From assembly GCA_963704165.1 (NCBI GenBank), contig CAVPHD010000001.1, positions 500,607 to 564,606 of the forward strand: a DNA stretch of 64,000 nt, in the 5' to 3' direction. Of this stretch, positions 9,631 through 63,605 are shown in pieces. Source of the stretch: an uncultured delta proteobacterium (GTDB lineage: Bacteria > Myxococcota_A > UBA9160 > SZUA-336). The first letter of the stretch is position 1, and each line of letters starts with the position of its first letter. The notes below the pieces were generated by a model. That model made no database searches. It worked only from the letters and a program-made list of their open reading frames with translations, and had not been told where the DNA came from. The position numbers were made by a program, and so were the translations under genes.

Positions 9631-11889
9631 TCAGTACTCCCTTTGTGCCTGCAGAACGGTGATCGCCGTGAGATTCACGATCTCGTCGACGGTCGCGGTG
9701 CGCTGGAGCGAGTTCATGGGATTGCGCATGCCCATCAGGATCGGGCCGACGACCGTCGCATTCCCGATCGATCCGATCATGCGCGTGGCGATGTGCGCGG
9801 ACTCGAGATTCGGGAAGATCAGGACGTTCGCCTCGCCCTTGATCTCGGAGAAGCCGAAGCGCGTGGCGCGGCGCACCGGGTCGAGCGCGATGTCCGCCTG
9901 CATCTCACCGTCGATCACCAGGTCCTTCCAGCGCGACTTGGCGATCTCGACGGCCTTCGAGAGTCGGTTCGTGCGCTCGTCGCGCACGCTCCCGTAGTTC
10001 GACGACGAAAGCACGGCGACGACCGGATCGAAGCCGAACCAGCGCGCGGTTTCCGCGCCGAGATCGGAGATGTCGGCGAGCTCTTCGGCCGAGGGCTCGA
10101 CGTTGACGGAGCCGTCGGCGAAGAACATCACGCGGTCCTTCTGGATCACGACGTAGACGCCGGCGGCGGCTTCGTGGCCGTCCGCGAGGCCGACGACTTC
10201 GAAGGCGGGCAGGATCGACTCCGCGTAGGACTTCGTGAGGCCCGCGACCAGGCCATCGGCTGCGCCCATGCGCACCATCATCGCGCCGAAGTAGCTGCGC
10301 CGGCCGATCAGGCGCTCCGCGTCCTGCTCGGTCACACCCTTGCGCTTGCGCAGCTGGACGAGCTCGCGCTGGTACTCTTTCTGCTCGCTCGAGAGATGGT
10401 GGTCGATGATGGTGATGCCATCCAGCGCGACGCCGACCTTCGATGCCTGAGCGCGGATCTCGACCTCGGTGCCGAGAAGGATCGGATGGCAGATCTGCTC
10501 CTCGTTCAGGATCTGAACCGCGCGAAGCACGCGCTCCTCGCTGCCTTCGGGGAAGACGATGCGCCTCGGCGCGCTCTTCGCCTTGTTGATCACCGTGCGC
10601 ATCAGCTCGCGCGAGCTGCCCAGGTATCGCTCGAGCCGCTCTCGGTACTCGTCGAGGTCGATCGGAACGCGCGCGACGCCCGATTCCATCGCCGCCTTCG
10701 CCACGGCCATGGATTCGTAGATCAGCACACGCGGATCGAAGGGCTTCGGAATGATGTAGTTCGGCCCGAACTCGAAGCGCTCGCCCGGATAGGCGTGAAA
10801 CACCTCTTCGGGCACGCCCTGCTCGCCCATCCGGGCCAGGTCCGCGAGCGCCTTCACCGCGGCGAGCTTCATCTCCAGGTTGATCTTGCGCGCGCGCACG
10901 TCGAGCGCGCCGCGGAAGATGAACGGGAAGCCGAGCACGTTGTTGACCTGGTTCGGATAGTCCGAGCGGCCCGTCGCCATGATCGCGTCGCCGCGCACTT
11001 CGGCGACCTCCGCCGGCGTGATCTCGGGATCGGGGTTCGCCATCGCGAAGATGATCGGGCTCGGAGCCATGCTGCGAACCATTTCCTTGGTCACCAGACC
11101 CGCGGATGCCACGCCGACGAACGCGTCGGCGCCCTTCATGGCATCGACGAGCGTGCGTGCATTCGTCTGGCGCGCGAATCGGGCCTTGTACTTGTTCATT
11201 CCCTCCTTGCGGCCCTCGTAGATCACCCCCTTGCTGTCGGTCATGAGGATGTTCTCGGGGCGCACGCCGAGGTGCAGATAGAGATCCGCACAGGCAATGC
11301 CCGCGGCACCAGCGCCGGCGAATACGACCTTGGTGTCTTCGATCTTTCGATTCGTGAGGATCAGCGCGTTGATGAACGCGGCTGCCGAGATGATCGCGGT
11401 GCCGTGCTGATCGTCGTGGAACACCGGGATGTTCATCTCCGCGATCAGACGCTCTTCGATCTCGAAGCACTCGGGCGCGCGGATGTCCTCGAGGTTGATC
11501 CCGCCGAACGTCGGCTCGAGCAGCTTGACGGTCTGGATGATCTTCTCCGGATCCTCCGTGTCGATCTCGAGGTCGAAGACATCGACGCCGGCAAAGCGCT
11601 TGAAGAGGACGCCCTTGCCCTCCATCACGGGCTTTCCGGCCAGCGCCCCGAGATTTCCGAGGCCGAGCACCGCGGTGCCGTTGGAGATCACCGCGACGAG
11701 GTTCCCGCGCGAGGTGTACTTGAAGGCGTCGTCCGGGTGCTTCTGGATCTCGAGGCAGGGCTCGGCCACGCCCGGCGTGTACGCGAGGGCGAGGTCGCGG
11801 GCGGTCAGGACGCTCTTGGTGGCGACGACCTCGATCTTTCCGGGCTTCCCCTTGCGGTGGTATTCGAGGGCCTGCTCCTTCGTGGTCAT
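9631..11889 (-). CDS. maeB: NADP-dependent malic enzyme with a C-terminal phosphotransacetylase-like domain
   Basis: Met50 of track ORF 9631..12036: [21 protein letters not shown]...YTPGVAEPC...[24 protein letters not shown]...FGGINLEDI...[11 protein letters not shown], followed by a PTA-like C-terminal half. Confidence 0.9.
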
Positions 11890-57741: not shown

Positions 57742-58753
57742 CTAGCTCTGGCGGCCGACGACGAAGTCCGCGAGCGCGAGCATCGCGTGCTTCGCCTCGC
57801 AATCCACGAACGGTTCGATCTGCGAGCGCGCCTGGCTGCCGAGCTGCTCCGCACGGGCGAGCGCGCTCTCGACGCCACGGTGCCGGGCCACGCACTCGGC
57901 CACGCGTTGCACGCTCTCGCGGTCCGGGCTGCGCCCGGCGGCGCTCTGCAGCGCGAACTCCTTCAAGAGGGCCGAGATCGCATCGCGCTCCCCTGTGCTG
58001 CAGCGCTTCAGGGTCGCGATCAACGGCAGCGTGAGCTTTCCCTCCGCCACGTCGGTGAGTGGCGCCTTGCCGAGGTCCCGCTCCGTGCCGGCGTAGTCGA
58101 GCGCGTCATCGACGAGCTGGAAGGCGAGGCCGAGGAGCCAGCCGTACTCGCGAACGGCGCGCCGCTCGGAACGAGTCACGCCACCGAGGATCGCACCCGC
58201 CTCGGCCGCGGCGGCGAGCAGGCTCGACGTCTTTCCGCCGATCACTTCTAGGTAGGTCGGTCTCGTTCATCTCGGGATCGAAGCTGCGCGTCAGCTGAAG
58301 GACCTCGCCCTCGGCCATCGCGCGGATGCTCTCGGCGAAGGCCGCGAGAATGTCGGGGTCCCCGTCCTCGACGAGCGTCTGACAGGTTCGCGCGTAGAGG
58401 AAGTCGCCGACGAGGATCGCGAGCTTGCTGCCGAAGTGCGCGTTCACGCTCGGACGCCCGCGCCGGGTCTCCGCGCCGTCGACGACGTCGTCGTGCAGGA
58501 GCGACGCGCTGTGCAGGTACTCGGCCGCGGCCGCGATCTGGATCGCGCGCGGACCGCGATAGCCGCAGAGTCGAGCGGCGAGCAGAACCATGACGGGCCG
58601 GACGCGTTTGCCGCCGCTTCCGAACGTGTGCTCGCCGATCGTCGGAATCACCGGCGCGACGGAGCGCATGCCGGCACGCATGACGCGCTCGACCTGATCG
58701 AGGTCGTCGCGCAGGAAGCTGATGATGCGGTCGAGATCGGGGGCGGCTGTCAA
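57742..58753 (-). pseudogene. ispB: all-trans polyprenyl-diphosphate synthase (IspB-like); one +1 frame break at ~58254-58258
   Basis: Track ORF 58106..58753 (…GGKRVRPVMVLLAARL…LHSASLLHDDVVDGAETRRGRPS…EGEVLQL…NETD) continues as track ORF 57742..58245 (YLEVIGGKTSSLL…GLAFQLVDDALDY…GKAPLTDVAEGKLTLP). Both DDxxD boxes are present. Confidence 0.85.
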
Positions 58754-58805
58754 CTCGCTTGCATCCGGTAGGAGGTTCGGCGAGTCTAGCCCGCGGCGGG
58801 GGGCG

Positions 58806-58862
58806 ATGTCAAAGATTCCGATGCCAAATCCGCTTCCATTCCAAGTAGTTAACGGAAGTTCT
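58806..58862 (+). pseudogene. bioF: orphaned 5' fragment of bioF (start codon plus ~19 codons), separated from the gene body by the IS insertion
   Basis: ATG 58806 is preceded by GGGGGG: atg tca aag att ccg atg cca aat ccg ctt cca ttc caa gta gtt aac gga agt tct. It runs in frame into cgg ctc gac gcc gag... at 62435 once 58863-62434 is removed. Confidence 0.5.
58855..58862. repeat. target-site duplication, left copy (gaagttct)
   Basis: An identical 8-mer sits at 62427-62434, each abutting the outer end of a terminal inverted repeat. Confidence 0.7.
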
Positions 58863-58884
58863 CGGAATTAGGTACTTGACGCAA
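58863..58884. repeat. left terminal inverted repeat (cggaattaggtacttgacgcaa)
   Basis: The reverse complement of 62405-62426 is ggcaattagatacttgacgcaa: 19 of 22 positions are identical, with a 12-nt perfect core (tacttgacgcaa). A subterminal ctagNcta motif lies ~35-38 nt in from each end (58901-58908; 62384-62391). Confidence 0.75.
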
Positions 58885-58916
58885 CAGTCTCCGCCTGACC
58901 CTAGACTAGGCGCAGT

Positions 58917-59222
58917 TCATTGAGACGGTGTGACCTTGGACCTCCGCAGCGTCGGCCAGTCGGAGAACCCAAGTGCCCAGCGAGCCGCGAAGATGCAGCC
59001 GGCGATTGGAGCCCACTTCCCGGCGTGGAAAACGATCACCAGCCTGAGCATTCGGAGTGCGGGGCTCGCGGCCTCGACCCCGACGGGAGCGAACAGGGAG
59101 TCGCCCCCGCTCAACACTCGAACGACCGAATCGAGCGACTTGAACATCTGCCAGGACCAATACGCCGACCAAACAGCGATCGCGAGCCGACACGCAAAGC
59201 CGAACCAGTTCTCCCGTTTCAC
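58917..59222 (-). CDS. small putative membrane protein (101 aa), IS cargo
   Basis: Track ORF 58917..59222 has two hydrophobic stretches (WFGFACRLAIAVWSAYWSW; LRLVIVFHAGKWAPIAGCIFAARWALGF). It is co-oriented with the NYN gene. Overlapping plus-strand ORFs look less protein-like. Confidence 0.35.
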   Translation of the reverse strand: MKRENWFGFACRLAIAVWSAYWSWQMFKSLDSVVRVLSGGDSLFAPVGVEAASPALRMLRLVIVFHAGKWAPIAGCIFAARWALGFSDWPTLRRSKVTPSQ

Positions 59223-59416
59223 GCCGCGGGTCTCCGGCTCAGCGCCGAACCGCTTTGCGCCGTGTTCTCTTCTTCTTCGGCCGCTCCGGCCATCCGCCCT
59301 CGGGCTTTCGCTTGGAGACCGCTCCTTTCAGCGCATCCTCCCAGGTTCCTGGCAGATGTAGCGCTCTAGCGTCTGGCCCGGTGTTCTTGGTCTTCCGATT
59401 TGCCACGGGTGAAACT

Positions 59417-60067
59417 CTAAGAGCCTGCCGGCGGCAAGTATTTCTGGGGGCAGCGGGCAACCACGATTCCCGTCGAGTCCTTGACCTCTAGGGGAAAGAG
59501 GCTCTTGCGCAGGTGTTTCGGCTCGATACTGCGAAGGCTCGGATATCCACCGAATGCGTGCACGATCTCCTTGCTGTGCCGCCGCTTCGGTGGCGCAACG
59601 AGCCGAAGGGGCTTCGTGGGGAACTGCGTTCTGAGCATTCGCACAACAGGCGCCAGATCGGAGTCTGCCGAGAGAAGAAGTCCCATATCGTACGAGTTCT
59701 TGTACGCCTCGTTCAGCATGAAGAGGCCGATGTTCACGTCCGTCTCCTTTTCCTCGTGCGCGATCCACTTCCCGCCGCACTTCTTGCAACTGCGGTCCTT
59801 CGGCTTAAAGAACCCCATGACCGGCGTCACCCCCACGCCTTCCAGTGCAGCAACGTATTCGCGGTGGCGTGCATATGCATCTGGAAGCCATGTGGCGTAC
59901 GCAGAGAAGTAGTAGATCTCGCGCAACTCTTGGTATGGCTTGGGAACAAAGAGCTGCAGGAGCGCCCTTAGGTTCAACCACTTGAAGTGGTTCTGTCCAA
60001 TGTCATCAAGCGCATGGTAGATGTTGAACCCATCGACAAAGGCCGCGACTCGTTGTGTCCGTACCAT
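59417..60067 (-). CDS. NYN/LabA-like (PIN-fold) predicted ribonuclease with an inserted CxxC zinc ribbon, IS cargo
   Basis: Met82 of track ORF 59417..60310: MVRTQRVAAFVDGFNIYHAL (first acidic motif)...FKPKDRSCKKCGGKWIAHEEKETDVNIGLFMLNEAYKNSYDMGLLLSADSDLAPVVRMLR (the xKGVDV / SGDSDF-type motifs of NYN/LabA). Confidence 0.7.
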   Translation of the reverse strand: MVRTQRVAAFVDGFNIYHALDDIGQNHFKWLNLRALLQLFVPKPYQELREIYYFSAYATWLPDAYARHREYVAALEGVGVTPVMGFFKPKDRSCKKCGGKWIAHEEKETDVNIGLFMLNEAYKNSYDMGLLLSADSDLAPVVRMLRTQFPTKPLRLVAPPKRRHSKEIVHAFGGYPSLRSIEPKHLRKSLFPLEVKDSTGIVVARCPQKYLPPAGS

Positions 60068-60203
60068 GTTGGCCCTCAAGTCCGGCTGGACGACAGCCGA
60101 ATCCGCGTCTAAGATTCGCCTTGAGTCATCCCGCAAGGTTCGCCCTTGCGCCGCCCATGGGCTTCGGCCCATGGGCTTTTCTACATCAGATACGCGAAAA
60201 TGC

Positions 60204-60270
60204 TGGAGCCGGAGGGGATCAAACCCTCGCGCCCAAGTTCCAAGCCCGGACGCAGTACCAACTCGGCCCC
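60204..60270 (-). other. tRNA-shaped 67-nt element (acceptor, anticodon and T arms; no D-arm; no CCA)
   Basis: Minus strand: GGGGCCGAGTTGGTACTGCGTCCGGGCTTGGAACTTGGGCGCGAGGGTTTGATCCCCTCCGGCTCCA. It has a 7-bp acceptor stem (including G3:U), a 5-bp stem with loop CTTGGAA (anticodon position TGG), and a 5-bp T-stem with loop TTTGATC. Only 14 nt occupy the place of the D-arm. Confidence 0.45.
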
Positions 60271-60382
60271 GAAGGGATCGCTCACCATGGCCCGCCCCAA
60301 GCCGTCCCAACGCGCTTGGAGGCGGGCCTTCTGGTTACGGCCACCAACTCCGGTGAACAGGAGAGCGGTGGCTAAACGGTCC

Positions 60383-61114
60383 TCATGATTCCTCCAGCGG
60401 CAGGGTCGCTAGAAACTTCGCCAACCGGTCTACGTCGGCGGCTGTCAGATCCATAGGCAGCGCGAGCTTGATAGGCATGTCCCGACGAAGTTGGAACGGA
60501 TGGACCATGAACCCAGAAGGGGTGTCAATTACTGGTGTGCGGTGAACGTCATCGTTCGGCGTACCCTGATCGCGCTGTCCGGATCCGCGTTTCTTGCTTG
60601 GCTTCCGCGAGCTCCGGGACTGAGCCGATTGCTGTCTACTAGCTCCACCTGCACCACGGCGGGGCTCGAAGTGGGGCGATATAGTCAGCTTCGCTTCCTG
60701 CATCGCGGAAAGGTAGAATCGCACTGCTTTATCGAGGACTTGGTTCTCTGCCTTGCCTCGTGTTCGGAATGCTTCCTTGAGCTGCGCGATGGTGCCAGAG
60801 TCGAGATCCACTCCTGCGAGAATCTCGCCGTACGCCTCTGAGATTGCGTTTCCTAGCGCCTCCGGCCACGTCGATGTACCATGGGCCTTCACGACGGCCC
60901 GAAGCCGATCGGTAACAATTCCGGGGCCTTGGATCATCCCGAGAAAACGGAGAGCAACGCGCAGATGGCTTTGGGTTGCGCCGGACATGCTGGTCATCAG
61001 GCTCGCGTCGATCGCCGGGGGAAGGGCGGTTTTGCTCAGCTTTCCGATGAAGCCCAGGAAGGTCTGGAAGGGTACGTAGGGCGGTCGAGCCGTTTCTTCT
61101 TTGCTCATCATCAA
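60383..61114 (-). CDS. hypothetical protein (243 aa), IS cargo: helical N-domain, basic Ser/Arg/Lys-rich linker, short C-terminal domain
   Basis: Track ORF 60383..61114: MMMSKEETARPPYVPFQTFLGFIGKL...LRVALRFLGMIQG...; linker RRGAGGASRQQSAQSRSSRKPSKKRGSGQRDQG; tail FMVHPFQLRRDMPIKLALPMDLTAADVDRLAKFLATLP. I cannot assign a family with confidence. Confidence 0.6.
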   Translation of the reverse strand: MMMSKEETARPPYVPFQTFLGFIGKLSKTALPPAIDASLMTSMSGATQSHLRVALRFLGMIQGPGIVTDRLRAVVKAHGTSTWPEALGNAISEAYGEILAGVDLDSGTIAQLKEAFRTRGKAENQVLDKAVRFYLSAMQEAKLTISPHFEPRRGAGGASRQQSAQSRSSRKPSKKRGSGQRDQGTPNDDVHRTPVIDTPSGFMVHPFQLRRDMPIKLALPMDLTAADVDRLAKFLATLPLEES

Positions 61115-61140
61115 CTCCGTGAATTACGTGGAGAGCGACA

Positions 61141-61422
61141 ATGGAACAGACAAGTCGAGTCGTGTCAACCCCAGCGGAGTACGTCACGGATGCAGTGACG
61201 GCGCTCGTGCGGGCGTATGGCGATGAGGCGGTAGAGCTGCGGGCCTTCCGTACCGCTGCGGACCGCGTAGCAGTTGTCGGTCCTGATGGAACTACGACCG
61301 GATATCCGATCTGCTTCGTGTACGAGTGGGATGCCCAGCTGTTCGAGCGCCTGAGTGCTGCATACGGCGCAGCCGATTGCGCGCAGCTCGAACGGCTGTG
61401 GACCCTCGCGAAGCCCTTCTAG
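61141..61422 (+). CDS. hypothetical protein (93 aa), IS cargo, divergent from the 243-aa gene
   Basis: Track ORF 61141..61422: MEQTSRVVSTPAEYVTDAVTALVRAYGDEAVELRAFRTAADRVAVVGPDGTTTGYPICFVYEWDAQLFERL.... Its TAG overlaps the transposase stop (CTAG). Confidence 0.5.
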   Translation: MEQTSRVVSTPAEYVTDAVTALVRAYGDEAVELRAFRTAADRVAVVGPDGTTTGYPICFVYEWDAQLFERLSAAYGAADCAQLERLWTLAKPF

Positions 61423-62378
61423 TACGAATCGCGCATCAAGCGCTTGCCATCGCCATTCCGAATCGCCAGCACCGTTCGATCGCCGTCGTCCATCTTGCGA
61501 GCGTTGTAGCGGAACTCGAACTCTGCCACGTAGCGATGCAGGTGCTTCGGCGAGACGTGGTGGAACGTTCCGTAGATCCCTCGCTTCAGCAGCGAGAAGA
61601 AGCCCTCGACGGTGTTGGTCGTTACGTCGCCGCGGGCGTACTCGTAGAGGCTGTGCTTCACCGCGTGATGGCCTCCCGCGAAGTGCTTGTTGAGCCCGCG
61701 ATATGGATGCGCCTCGTCGGTCATGATGCGCGCGCTAGGGTCAACGTGCTGGCGGACCTTGGCCTTCAGGTTCTGACCCGGACCCTTCGGGACGTGTGAA
61801 GCGCGTGCATTGCCACCGCGCTCGACCATCGCGAACACGGTCTCCTTGGGCGTGCGCTTGTTCTTGCCGTGGAGGCGCTGGTTGCGCATTCGAGTCCGGC
61901 CACCGACGTAGGTCTCATCAACCTCGACGGTGCCCTGGAGCTGCGGTGGCGTGGAGTGGTCTTCGGCCATCGCGAACCGGATGCGGTGCATCATGAAGAG
62001 CGCGCTCTTGTATGTGAGCCCGGTCTCCCGCTTGATCTGGAGCGCCGAGACGCCTTTCTTCGACGAGCACGCGCGCCAGAAGGCATGGCACCAGATGCGC
62101 ATCGGGATCGGGCTGTCCTCGAAGATCGTACCGACCCGGACGGTGAACTGGCGCTTGCAGCCCTTGCAGCGCCACAGGAAACGCTTGCTGCGCTCGCCGG
62201 TGGTGCGATCCTTCATCGCGTACACGTTCACGTCACCACAGCGCGGGCAGGCGGGCTCGCCGCCCCACCGCTGGGCTTCTATGAACTCGACCGCAACGCT
62301 TTCGTCGCGACACGCCTCTGGGAGTTGGGCGATGATCGAGTCCTTGTCCTGCCCGACCTTGCGTTGTCGTTGTGCCAT
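61419..62378 (-). CDS. IS1595-family transposase (N-terminal zinc ribbon + DDE domain)
   Basis: ...CPRCGDVNVYAMK...WRCKGCKRQFTVRVGTIFEDSPIPMRIW (zinc ribbon)...GVSALQIKRETGLTYKSALFMMHRIR (HTH)...VEVDETYVGG...IMTDEAHPY...TNTVEGFFSLLKRGIYGTFHHVSPKHLHRYVAEFEFRYN. Confidence 0.88.
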   Translation of the reverse strand: MAQRQRKVGQDKDSIIAQLPEACRDESVAVEFIEAQRWGGEPACPRCGDVNVYAMKDRTTGERSKRFLWRCKGCKRQFTVRVGTIFEDSPIPMRIWCHAFWRACSSKKGVSALQIKRETGLTYKSALFMMHRIRFAMAEDHSTPPQLQGTVEVDETYVGGRTRMRNQRLHGKNKRTPKETVFAMVERGGNARASHVPKGPGQNLKAKVRQHVDPSARIMTDEAHPYRGLNKHFAGGHHAVKHSLYEYARGDVTTNTVEGFFSLLKRGIYGTFHHVSPKHLHRYVAEFEFRYNARKMDDGDRTVLAIRNGDGKRLMRDSY

Positions 62379-62404
62379 GCCCGTAGACTAGAGGAATCAA
62401 CGGT

Positions 62405-62426
62405 TTGCGTCAAGTATCTAATTGCC
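62405..62426. repeat. right terminal inverted repeat (ttgcgtcaagtatctaattgcc)
   Basis: See the left repeat. The transposase ATG (62378) lies 27 nt inside it. Confidence 0.75.
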
Positions 62427-62434
62427 GAAGTTCT
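62427..62434. repeat. target-site duplication, right copy (gaagttct)
   Basis: Identical to 58855-58862. Confidence 0.7.
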
Positions 62435-63605
62435 CGGCTCGACGCCGAGCTCGCGATCGAGCTCGGCACCCTGCGCGAGAGGAGCCTGTACAGGCGTCTC
62501 CGGCGCATCGAGGGACGACAGGCGCCGCGCATGCGCGTCGACGGCCGCGAGTGCACGATGCTCGCCGGATCGAACTACCTCGACCTCGCGGGTGACGCGC
62601 GCGTGATTGCCGCCGCGCAGAGCGCAGCGGACGAGTACGGCACCGCCGCGGCGGGATCGCGGCTGATCAACGGAAACCTCGCGCTCCACGAGGAGCTCGA
62701 GGCCGATCTCGCGCGCTTCACCGGCCACGAGGCCGCGCTCGTCTTCAGCAGCGGGTACATGGCGAATCTCGGGGTGCTCGGCGCGCTCTGTGGACCCGAC
62801 GACGTGATCGTCTCGGACTCGTTGAACCACGCGAGCATCATCGACGCCTGCAGACTCTCGCGCGCACAGACGCGCGTGTTCCGCCACAACGACCCCGCGG
62901 ATCTCGCGCGTGTCGCCGCGGAGCTCGCCGGCTACCGGCGTCGGGTGCTGGTCGTCGATGGCGTCTACAGCATGGATGGCGACAGGTCGCGGCTCTCCGA
63001 GCTCGTGCCGATCGCGCGAGCTCACGAGATGATCGTCGTGCTCGACGACGCGCACGGTCTCGGCGTGCTCGGCGCGACGGGCCGCGGCGTATCCGAGGCC
63101 GAAGGCGTCGCGGTCGACCTCTCGATCGGGAATCTCGGCAAGGCACTCGGCAGCTTCGGCGCGTTCGTCGCCTGCTCGGCGCGCGTGCGCGAGTACCTGG
63201 TGAACACCTCGCGCAGCTTCATCTTCACCTGTGCGGTCGCGCCGCCCGCGCTCGGCGCGGCACGCGAGGCGCTGCGGATCGCGCAAGGGGAACCGGAACG
63301 CCGAAAGCTCCTGCTCGAGCGCGCGGAGCAGCTCCGCGTCGGCCTGCGTACGGCCGGCTACGACACGGGCGCGAGCACGACGCAGATCGTTCCGGCGATC
63401 GTCGGCGAGAACGACGCGGTAATGCGACTGACCGAAGCCGCGCTCGAGCGCGGCGTCTACGCGCAGGGCATCCGCCACCCGTCCGTGCCGCACGGCACGG
63501 CCCGGATCCGCTTCACGCCCACCTGCGCGCACACGGCCTCGGACATTGTCCGGGTGGTCGAGATCTTCGCGGAGCTTCGCGACTCGTGAGCGAGCGGCGG
63601 AGGCG

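Follow-up and report, generated by a model that had tools for sequence, protein, structure and literature searches.

A cargo-carrying IS1595-family insertion sequence at the start of bioF, and a clade of related elements with a small basic protein and a tRNA-type gene

The bioF gene (for 8-amino-7-oxononanoate synthase) of an uncultured delta proteobacterium (GTDB lineage Myxococcota_A; UBA9160; SZUA-336) is interrupted near its start by a mobile element. The window, that is, the whole stretch of DNA analysed here, is 64,000 nucleotides long (contig CAVPHD010000001.1 of assembly GCA_963704165.1, positions 500,607 to 564,606), and coordinates without a prefix refer to it. The first 19 codons of bioF, MSKIPMPNPLPFQVVNGSS (58806-58862, + strand), are severed from the body of the gene (62435-63589, + strand), which is free of stop codons and matches the NCBIfam bioF model at 3e-121. 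Between them lies an element of 3,564 bp (58863-62426). Its left end, distal to the transposase gene, is the terminal inverted repeat cggaattaggtacttgacgcaa (58863-58884, + strand); its right end, on the transposase side (62405-62426, − strand), reads ggcaattagatacttgacgcaa as the reverse complement. The left end fits the terminal consensus CGGAAGTATGTACTTGACGCAA of a larger clade of elements that is surveyed below. The two arms are identical at 19 of 22 positions, and both are abutted by perfect copies of the 8-mer gaagttct (58855-58862 and 62427-62434). A transposase gene, five passenger open reading frames (ORFs) and a degenerate tRNA-like sequence are found between the ends.

The ends and the 8-mer had been reported in a preliminary description, made from the letters of the window and a list of its ORFs, and both were seen as claimed. 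A repeat finder gave a 19-nt core that is 95% complementary between the arms. When up to three mismatches are allowed, this core has only two sites in the 64-kb window (0.00 expected from shuffles), so that the ends are unique to these positions. As CGG follows the 8-mer both in the left end and in the target, the two flanks are in fact identical over 11 nt, gaagttctcgg, a string that occurs twice in the window (0.05 expected). The subterminal ctagNcta motif that had been noticed about 35-38 nt inside each end is also present; ctagacta lies at 58901-58908, and ctagtcta is the reverse complement of 62384-62391, at distances of 38 and 35 nt from the ends. The G+C content of the element is 0.61, compared with 0.71 in the left flank and 0.69 in the right flank, and its profile drops from about 0.70 to 0.57-0.64 within the element. 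The G+C content at third codon positions (GC3) is 0.64-0.78 in the cargo, 0.84 in the transposase gene and 0.88-0.89 in the host genes. Thus, the lower GC and GC3 of the passengers stood as first described, while the count of four non-transposase ORFs had to be raised to five. A second, independent assembly (a Logan contig) has the identical gene order and the identical left neighbour. No second copy of the element was found in the 64-kb window, and the exact transposase protein was matched at this locus only.

The transposase gene (61419-62378, − strand) encodes a protein of 319 aa with a zinc ribbon and a DDE domain. The protein matches Pfam DDE_Tnp_IS1595 (PF12762) over the whole profile at 5e-43, Zn_ribbon_IS1595 (PF12760) at 2e-11 and NCBIfam transpos_IS1595 (NF033547) at 2e-54, the last two above their cut-offs. 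The profiles of both databases agree with the IS1595 type named in the preliminary description. A zinc ribbon is expected in all subgroups of the IS1595 family except IS1016. In PMC8101967, the family is delimited by target duplications of 8 bp, by a single transposase and by its N-terminal zinc finger. All testable features of the family were found here, namely the DDE domain, the zinc ribbon, the 8-bp duplication and inverted ends around one transposase; the terminal inverted repeats enclose only one transposase ORF. The duplication length of 8 bp that the preliminary description gave for the family agrees with the same paper and with 53 relatives. The ATG of the transposase gene lies 26 nt inside the right repeat. 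This repeat includes TTGACG, which resembles a −35 element; TAGTCT follows 17 nt inward and the ATG 6 nt further, and the two motifs likely form the transposase promoter. Among the named relatives of the transposase on plasmids of cultured organisms, the best identity is 46%, and these are annotated only as 'IS1595 family transposase'.

Is the cargo a part of the mobile unit? Joining position 58862 to 62435 gives an in-frame bioF, whose start reads MSKIPMPNPLPFQVVNGSS|RLDAEL. This reconstructed, uninterrupted gene was used as the query in a search for empty sites. Its homologues are 83-88% identical and 403-406 aa long, with the N-terminus fully covered. In two of these loci, L083 and L084, the gene order is that of the window, with a polyprenyl synthase gene divergent from bioF-bioA-bioD, and bioF is uninterrupted (403-404 aa). 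Their DNA is gaplessly colinear with the predicted join and holds a single copy of GGAAGTTC(A/T). Thus, the insertion split bioF after codon 19, and both loci have the predicted empty site, in which 58855-58862 runs straight on into 62435 and the 8-mer occurs once. The 8-bp duplication brackets all 3,564 bp, and the empty sites have neither the transposase nor the cargo. The segment 58863-62426 is an IS1595-family transporter insertion sequence (IS) with its cargo inside the mobile unit, as the preliminary description had proposed in place of a plain IS. BioF proteins annotated with 352 aa were considered as candidate occupied alleles and rejected; those of L085 and L086 are empty sites annotated from an internal Met.

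The transporter element ISNha5 has a size range of 3.4-7.9 kb, and the element in the window falls within this range. The end motif of ISNha5 is CGGnnTT. The left end in the window (CGGAATT) fits this motif, while the right end (GGCAATT) and the clade consensus (CGGAAGT) are not exact fits.

Two further occupied bioF genes were found. The closest transposases, 90-91% identical to that of the window, are encoded by L001, an ENA contig, and by L003, a Myxococcota metagenome-assembled genome (MAG). Both elements have the same position in bioF, the same ends and the same 8-mer as in the window. The ratio of nonsynonymous to synonymous divergence (dN/dS) of the bioF body is 0.19 against L003, and no stop codons are present; judged by this, bioF is a gene that stayed functional after the insertion. 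On the + strand, a TTG at 62405, inside the right end, opens a frame into bioF, and the matching frame is open in L001 and L003. Translation presumably starts from this TTG in the end of the element, or from an internal ATG.

The passenger ORF next to the left end (58917-59222, − strand) encodes 101 aa and has no match in Pfam, NCBIfam, PADLOC or PHROGs. The next one (59417-60067, − strand) encodes an NYN-domain protein of 216 aa, which matches Pfam NYN at 1e-9, PHROG 7929 at 1e-22 and PADLOC HEC-09 (PDLC04163) at 8e-51 (residues 5-206 of 216); a homologue is present in the element of L005. By these profile matches, it is a putative RNase and a candidate defence gene. HEC-09 (Hma-embedded candidate 9) has the same NYN domain, and the window passenger matches its profile over the full length; its source context is different, since it was found embedded in an Hma system and the window copy lies inside a transposon. 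HEC-09 conferred no resistance to any of the phages assayed in its source study (bioRxiv 10.1101/2024.01.29.577857). The ORF at 60383-61114 (− strand; 243 aa) has a weak PADLOC match to the defence candidate PDC-M34A (2e-4) and no match in Pfam, NCBIfam or PHROGs. The ORF at 61141-61422 (+ strand; 93 aa) is convergent with the transposase gene and overlaps its stop codon; it has a homologue in the element of L019 and no family match. The NYN gene and the tRNA-like sequence are separated by a strong GC-rich hairpin with 10 pairs (60153-60176), after which a run of T follows on the + strand; it resembles a terminator, but the local genes are on the opposite strand.

The fifth passenger had been missed in the preliminary description. 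It is a small basic protein of 55 aa with a GTG start (59239-59406, − strand) and the motif GPxP..L.I.G.WEDA..KA..K..P..GWP, and it belongs to a family that is found throughout the clade.

Is this element alone, or does it belong to a group with common parts? A survey was made of 80 loci fetched from species-representative genomes, nearly all of them MAGs, whose transposases are 51-64% identical to that of the window, except for L003. The hosts belong to Myxococcota, Gemmatimonadota, Planctomycetota/Phycisphaerae, Binatia, Verrucomicrobiota, Eisenbacteria, Krumholzibacteriia and others. End pairs were located by blastn-short and a regular-expression scan; the terminal consensus CGGAAGTATGTACTTGACGCAA is common to the loci, and pairs bracketing the transposase gene were found in 59 of them. 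An element was taken as validated when an 8-bp direct repeat (at most one mismatch) abuts the ends exactly, which was the case for 53 of the 59. The ends and the 8-bp duplication seen in the window are therefore the rule in these relatives, a recurrence that had been named as a check of the preliminary description. The validated lengths are 1,669-6,241 bp, the smallest group being about 2.04 kb, and no plain IS of about 1 kb was found among the 53. One genome has two copies with different duplications (L042 and L043); this pair shows real transposition in the clade.

The cargo of the clade is diverse, with 142 of 242 ORFs being singletons. Most common are Xre-type regulators, SocA/Panacea proteins, DNA methylases and restriction enzymes, nucleases of the PIN-like and NYN types, and Fic, ImmA/IrrE and GNAT proteins. 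The other cargo is thus mostly of toxin-antitoxin, restriction-modification or defence-like type.

In contrast to this diverse cargo, the small basic protein is universal. An iterated hidden Markov model search detected it in 54 of 54 elements (the 53 validated ones and that of the window), as a protein of about 50 aa with the motif GPKPDxLKIEGDWEDAxKKAxxKKRPxxGWP. At least 1,014 homologues are in the database; none has a Pfam domain, and each source name given is 'hypothetical protein'. The protein has no match in Pfam or PHROGs. When loci were picked by the small protein alone, an IS1595 transposase was found within 1-2 kb in three of three independent loci. The gene lies at most 240 bp from an element end in 37 of 54 elements and reads outward in 50 of 54. 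In the AlphaFold prediction, the protein has one short helix and the rest is disordered (predicted local distance difference test, pLDDT, 70; predicted template modelling score, pTM, 0.26). Since the small protein is universal and located at the element end, my guess is that it may be an accessory factor of transposition or regulation.

The second common part is a tRNA-type gene. ARAGORN reports an 82-93-nt 'tRNA-Pro(UGG)' inside most elements of the clade. The 29 aligned UGG copies fold into a canonical class-II cloverleaf with a 7-bp acceptor stem and a 5-bp T stem (7/5), a D-arm of the leucine-tRNA type and a long variable arm. The discriminator is A (A73) in nearly all of the 29 copies, by eye on the alignment. 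Double compensatory changes are seen in 19 of 20 predicted pairs and almost no pair is broken, while the TGG anticodon is invariant in the 29 copies. By this covariation, the UGG copies are class-II tRNA genes. A covariance model built from them, which also finds copies of 100-106 nt, detects a class-II tRNA-type gene within 39 of the 53 validated elements. With this model, genuine tRNA-Leu genes of the hosts reach 74-78 bits. The only strong matches outside the elements are ordinary host tRNA-Leu genes, 1.6-4.3 kb away. It was also considered whether a tRNA gene is the insertion target; this was rejected, as the tRNA lies inside the 39 elements, whose boundaries are fixed by duplications. A fixed operon of the tRNA and the small ORF was likewise rejected, because the arrangement varies.

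Some elements have other anticodons. The 2.05-kb elements of Longimicrobiales (L042:9928-11977, L043:9928-11977 and L055:9912-11973) have two adjacent class-II tRNAs, which ARAGORN calls Leu(UAA) and 'Stop'(UUA), and the element L026:9816-12694 carries a UGG and a UUA tRNA. By its anticodon, the 'Stop'(UUA) tRNA is a potential ochre suppressor. At L010:9660-9839, a Leu(CAA) tRNA is directly followed by a UGG tRNA just upstream of the transposase gene; the far end of this element is beyond the contig.

The copy in the window, a tRNA-like sequence at 60204-60270 (− strand), is degenerate. The preliminary description had noticed a tRNA-shaped element there, and it is present, but it does not reach the thresholds of the detectors, with no call from ARAGORN and 24.5 bits on the Rfam tRNA model against a gathering score of 29; it is a degenerate copy of the hallmark gene of the clade. 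It keeps the acceptor stem (with G3:U70), the UGG anticodon loop CUUGGAA and the T-arm; its D-arm is truncated and the long variable arm is missing, so that it is no canonical cloverleaf. The clade model R1 gives 26.4 bits (E 0.0085). The copies of the window and L003, between which the T stem shows one compensatory change, score 25-26 bits on the clade covariance model, without a D-arm and a variable arm. The short variants (window, L003, L018, L034, L047 and L050) were considered as a structured subtype. This was rejected, since only the T-arm and the acceptor stem are kept, and they are degenerate.

On the basis of these results, I regard the following account of the element as highly probable. 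It is a 3,564-bp transporter IS of a large clade, mostly of uncultured bacteria, with a conserved core and a variable cargo bay, and it most likely entered bioF long ago. The DDE transposase would recognise both 22-bp ends, insert the whole unit and duplicate 8 bp of the target. The core is made up of the ends, the transposase, the basic and largely disordered protein of about 50 aa, and, in about three quarters of the elements, the class-II tRNA. The bay between these parts is filled with unrelated genes of toxin-antitoxin, restriction-modification or defence type. In the window, it holds the putative RNase of the NYN/HEC-09 type and three ORFs without an assigned family, and the tRNA has decayed to a short remnant.

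A bolder proposal is a three-component transposon, in which the tRNA and the small protein are partners of the transposase or of element maintenance, and the bay is exchangeable with cargo swapped at one site. I offer it tentatively and hold it to be rather doubtful. The possible roles are control of transposition by the tRNA or the protein, decoding of proline codons as leucine, and supply of a rare-codon tRNA. The leucine identity of the UGG tRNA is inferred from the D-arm and A73 only. Leucyl-tRNA synthetase (LeuRS) is known not to read the anticodon. Thus, a tRNA with a leucine body and a proline anticodon could insert leucine at proline codons. In the core genes, CCA makes up 26-28% of proline codons and TTA 5-6% of leucine codons, compared with 13% and 1.6% in host ORFs. 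My leading guess is that the tRNA serves to decode CCA-type codons; a role outside translation would be the alternative. A role as a guide RNA found no support; the complementarity of a tRNA to the target of its own element is 6.3 nt, compared with 6.0 nt to the targets of others (P about 0.06), and that to the own subterminal ends is 6.9 nt against 6.9 nt (P about 0.5). Three points on the tRNA weigh against the main account given above. The tRNA is not strictly required, as 14 of 53 elements lack it; the copy in the window is degenerate and may be non-functional; and charging by LeuRS would mistranslate proline codons, which fits badly with simple codon supply.

How does the element in the window differ from those at the same site in the other two occupied genomes? 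The flanks and the transposase genes of the window and L003 align at 85-87% identity, while within the element only a block of 139 bp aligns (60198-60336, − strand; 85% identity by blastn). The block consists of a strong hairpin and, after it, the tRNA-like sequence (fold z-score −3.3). The alignment breaks about 60 nt before the transposase stop codon and at the inner edge of the left end. Instead of the passengers of the window, L003 carries genes for a 253-aa protein, an 86-aa protein, a phosphoribosyltransferase and a 92-aa protein, and the cargo of L001 diverges directly after the transposase stop codon. The preliminary description had proposed to test whether the same cargo travels with this transposase elsewhere; it does not, as no two of the three occupied genomes have the same cargo. 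The 243-aa protein of the window and the 253-aa protein of L003 were considered as homologues and rejected, with only a weak match over 36 residues (E 0.013). The cargo on either side of the tRNA remnant was probably replaced after the shared element ancestor of the three genomes, perhaps by recombination with other members of the clade at the shared core sequences. The lower GC3 of the cargo than of the transposase gene agrees with a later arrival of the cargo.

The preliminary description had taken the perfect duplication as a sign of recent insertion. This was not supported, as L003 and L001 are occupied at the identical site and the synonymous divergence (dS) of the transposase genes, 0.50, 0.49 and 0.44 (±0.07) for the three pairs among the window, L003 and L001, is similar to that of the host genes. 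The dS of bioF is 0.52 over the full length between the window and L003, and 0.61, 0.57 and 0.34 for the three pairs over 143 shared codons; that of the polyprenyl synthase gene is 0.50-0.54. Since the dS of the transposase is about that of the flanks, the element has therefore been tied to these genomes for about as long as they have been separated. The dN/dS of the transposase is 0.09-0.16 against the L003 and L001 copies; by these ratios, the transposase and bioF are both under purifying selection. It can be inferred that the perfect 8-mer says little about age here. I lean, with modest confidence, towards one old insertion into bioF, which was probably polymorphic at the radiation, or was later lost or replaced by recombination.

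Several observations weigh against this reading. The occupied alleles are not sister to one another in the BioF tree; that of the window clusters with empty alleles, and those of L003 and L001 cluster with an empty allele, P0125 (92% identity to L003). All BioF lineages are about equally distant, as in a star-like radiation. Because occupied and empty alleles are interspersed, a single old insertion needs ancestral polymorphism, precise loss or allelic recombination. Elsewhere in the clade, independent insertions share a target motif, namely GATTCTTC in three or four cases and CTCGCGAG in two. The GATTCTTC insertions are at the same position of a repeat resembling repetitive extragenic palindromes (REP-like; ..CCGG|GATTCTTC|GCTGCGCTCAGAATGA..), with the target 8-mers at L016:9130-9137, L037:8971-8978, L056:710-717 and probably L059:9403-9410, and those of L023 and L068 are in the loop of a GGGCGG-CTCGCGAG-CCGCCC hairpin. 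Many targets in the clade are loops between short inverted repeats. Two further points bear on the account of the element as a whole: the transposase gene of L003 (10001-10995) is split into two ORFs, 10001-10723 and 10720-10995, by a frameshift or an assembly error, and no outward promoter for bioF was found at the right end by a consensus scan.

Some of these observations fit better with a rival explanation, in which the window lineage and the L003/L001 lineage acquired their insertions independently or recently at a preferred target, GAAGTTCT followed by CGG. Each lineage would have used its own resident, vertically inherited element with different cargo already aboard. This would account for the interspersed occupied and empty alleles, for the different cargo in each occupied genome without replacement in place, and for the perfect duplications, and the repeated hits on one motif in L016, L037, L056, probably L059, L023 and L068 give it a precedent. 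However, the 53 validated targets are otherwise diverse and AT-rich without a strict consensus, and it would thus be unusual for one gene to be struck two or three times at exactly the same 8 bp. The equality of transposase and flank dS would be a coincidence, no second copy lies in the window, the exact transposase protein is matched at this locus only, and the three genomes agree at all 22 positions of the right end. I consider independent insertion a minority possibility, though one to be taken seriously.

Is the element still mobile? The right end is 22/22 identical in the window (62405-62426), L001 (436-457) and L003 (9953-9974), while the surrounding DNA is only about 85% identical. In contrast, the left ends of the window and L003 agree at 18/22, and the two ends of L003 itself at 16/22. 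The invariance of the right end suggests selection on it as a promoter and/or a new start of bioF, and the fixed right end together with the drifted left end hints that the copies may no longer move. In a second rival explanation, the element has been immobilised and domesticated, with the transposase and the right end kept for the host, for example as a promoter or start of bioF or for regulation. The pattern of the ends, the low dN/dS of the transposase maintained over a dS of about 0.5 at one site, the bioF frame open through the right end in all three genomes and the detection of only a single copy are in its favour. On the other hand, purifying selection is also expected of an active element whose copies are lost and regained, the ends in the window still match at 19/22, and the turnover of the cargo suggests ongoing interaction with other mobile copies. 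The frameshifted transposase of L003 speaks against an essential host role there. Domestication thus appears unlikely. An ordinary IS of about 1 kb beside an unrelated islet bounded by a solo end copy would agree with the difference in GC3 between cargo and transposase and with the variable cargo, but it is hardly credible, as no end copy lies past the transposase stop codon and only two exist in the window, the duplication brackets the whole 3,564 bp, the empty sites lack the transposase and the cargo together, and in the 53 relatives, none of about 1 kb, the duplication likewise brackets both.

As a single case, the insertion is a well-documented representative of an established type, an IS1595 element that carries cargo and has both ends, a duplication and a matching empty site. 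Cargo-carrying 'transporter IS' are established in the family, and ISNha5, with regulators as passengers, is named as an example (PMC11891212, after Siguier et al. 2009). Like the element in the window, ISNha5 and the passenger-carrying variants of ISNwi1 and ISPna2 are described with a zinc-ribbon/DDE transposase encoded by one gene, inverted ends, an 8-bp duplication and internal passengers (PMC11891212, PMC8101967). The published descriptions consulted report passenger regulators and mention neither a universal small protein nor a conserved tRNA. In the literature searched, no description was found of a tRNA or small-protein partner of IS1595 elements, nor of the architecture of the clade as a whole, with an obligatory small protein, usually a UGG tRNA with a leucine-type body, and an exchangeable bay. 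I know of no described tRNA gene that forms a conserved core part of an insertion sequence. The clade is widespread and apparently undescribed.

The tRNAs of the clade resemble the allo-tRNAs, non-standard tRNA genes of soil and sediment bacteria whose body identity and anticodon mismatch (2017 work, reviewed in PMC7609411). In the account of that review, some allo-tRNAs are degenerate and lie beside transposon-related genes, as in the clade, and Leu and ochre (UUA) anticodons are among them, as in the Longimicrobiales elements (PMC7609411). However, allo-tRNAs are described there with 8/4 or 9/3 acceptor/T stems and a serine-type identity (PMC7609411), while those of the clade have 7/5 stems, a leucine-type D-arm, A73 and an invariant UGG. 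Membership in the allo-tRNAs was rejected because of the 7-bp acceptor stem and the 5-bp T stem. In contrast to allo-tRNAs, the tRNAs of the clade are shown inside transposons with validated boundaries. Codon-matching tRNAs of phages and other mobile elements are another parallel; the elements have a lower GC than their hosts, use CCA and TTA 2-3.5 times as often and carry UGG or UAA tRNAs. A leucine-type body on a proline anticodon would be unexpected for codon supply, though, and some elements of the clade carry the stop-reading UUA version.

Although the insertion in the window interrupts a biosynthetic gene at the start of its coding sequence, the gene stayed functional. The result at the level of the clade could matter more than the individual insertion. 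Charging of the tRNA with leucine would make these elements mobile carriers of a mistranslating tRNA. A part of the tRNA or the small protein in transposition would be a new accessory requirement for a family of DDE transposases that is usually described as encoding one transposase gene only. The variable bay would be a small, simple vehicle added to the known routes of defence-gene movement. These hypotheses can be tested by standard transposition, tRNA-charging and reporter assays.

Some minor observations were made around the target. In the window, the target and its surroundings (CGGAAGTTCT on the + strand, then CGG; 58853-58862 and 62425-62437) resemble the terminus CGGAAGT of the clade, and the REP-like target reads GAAGAATC, then CCGG. 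This likeness may reflect a preference of the transposase at the cleavage site, or coincidence. To the left of the insertion, the polyprenyl (octaprenyl-type) diphosphate synthase gene (57742-58753) is present as two overlapping ORFs, with one extra base at about 58261 compared with L083 and L003, which is a true frameshift or an assembly error. The best sigma-70-like promoter of the region (58783-58812, − strand; TTGACA, an 18-nt spacer and TAGACT) lies within the orphaned 5′ end of bioF and faces the polyprenyl synthase gene.

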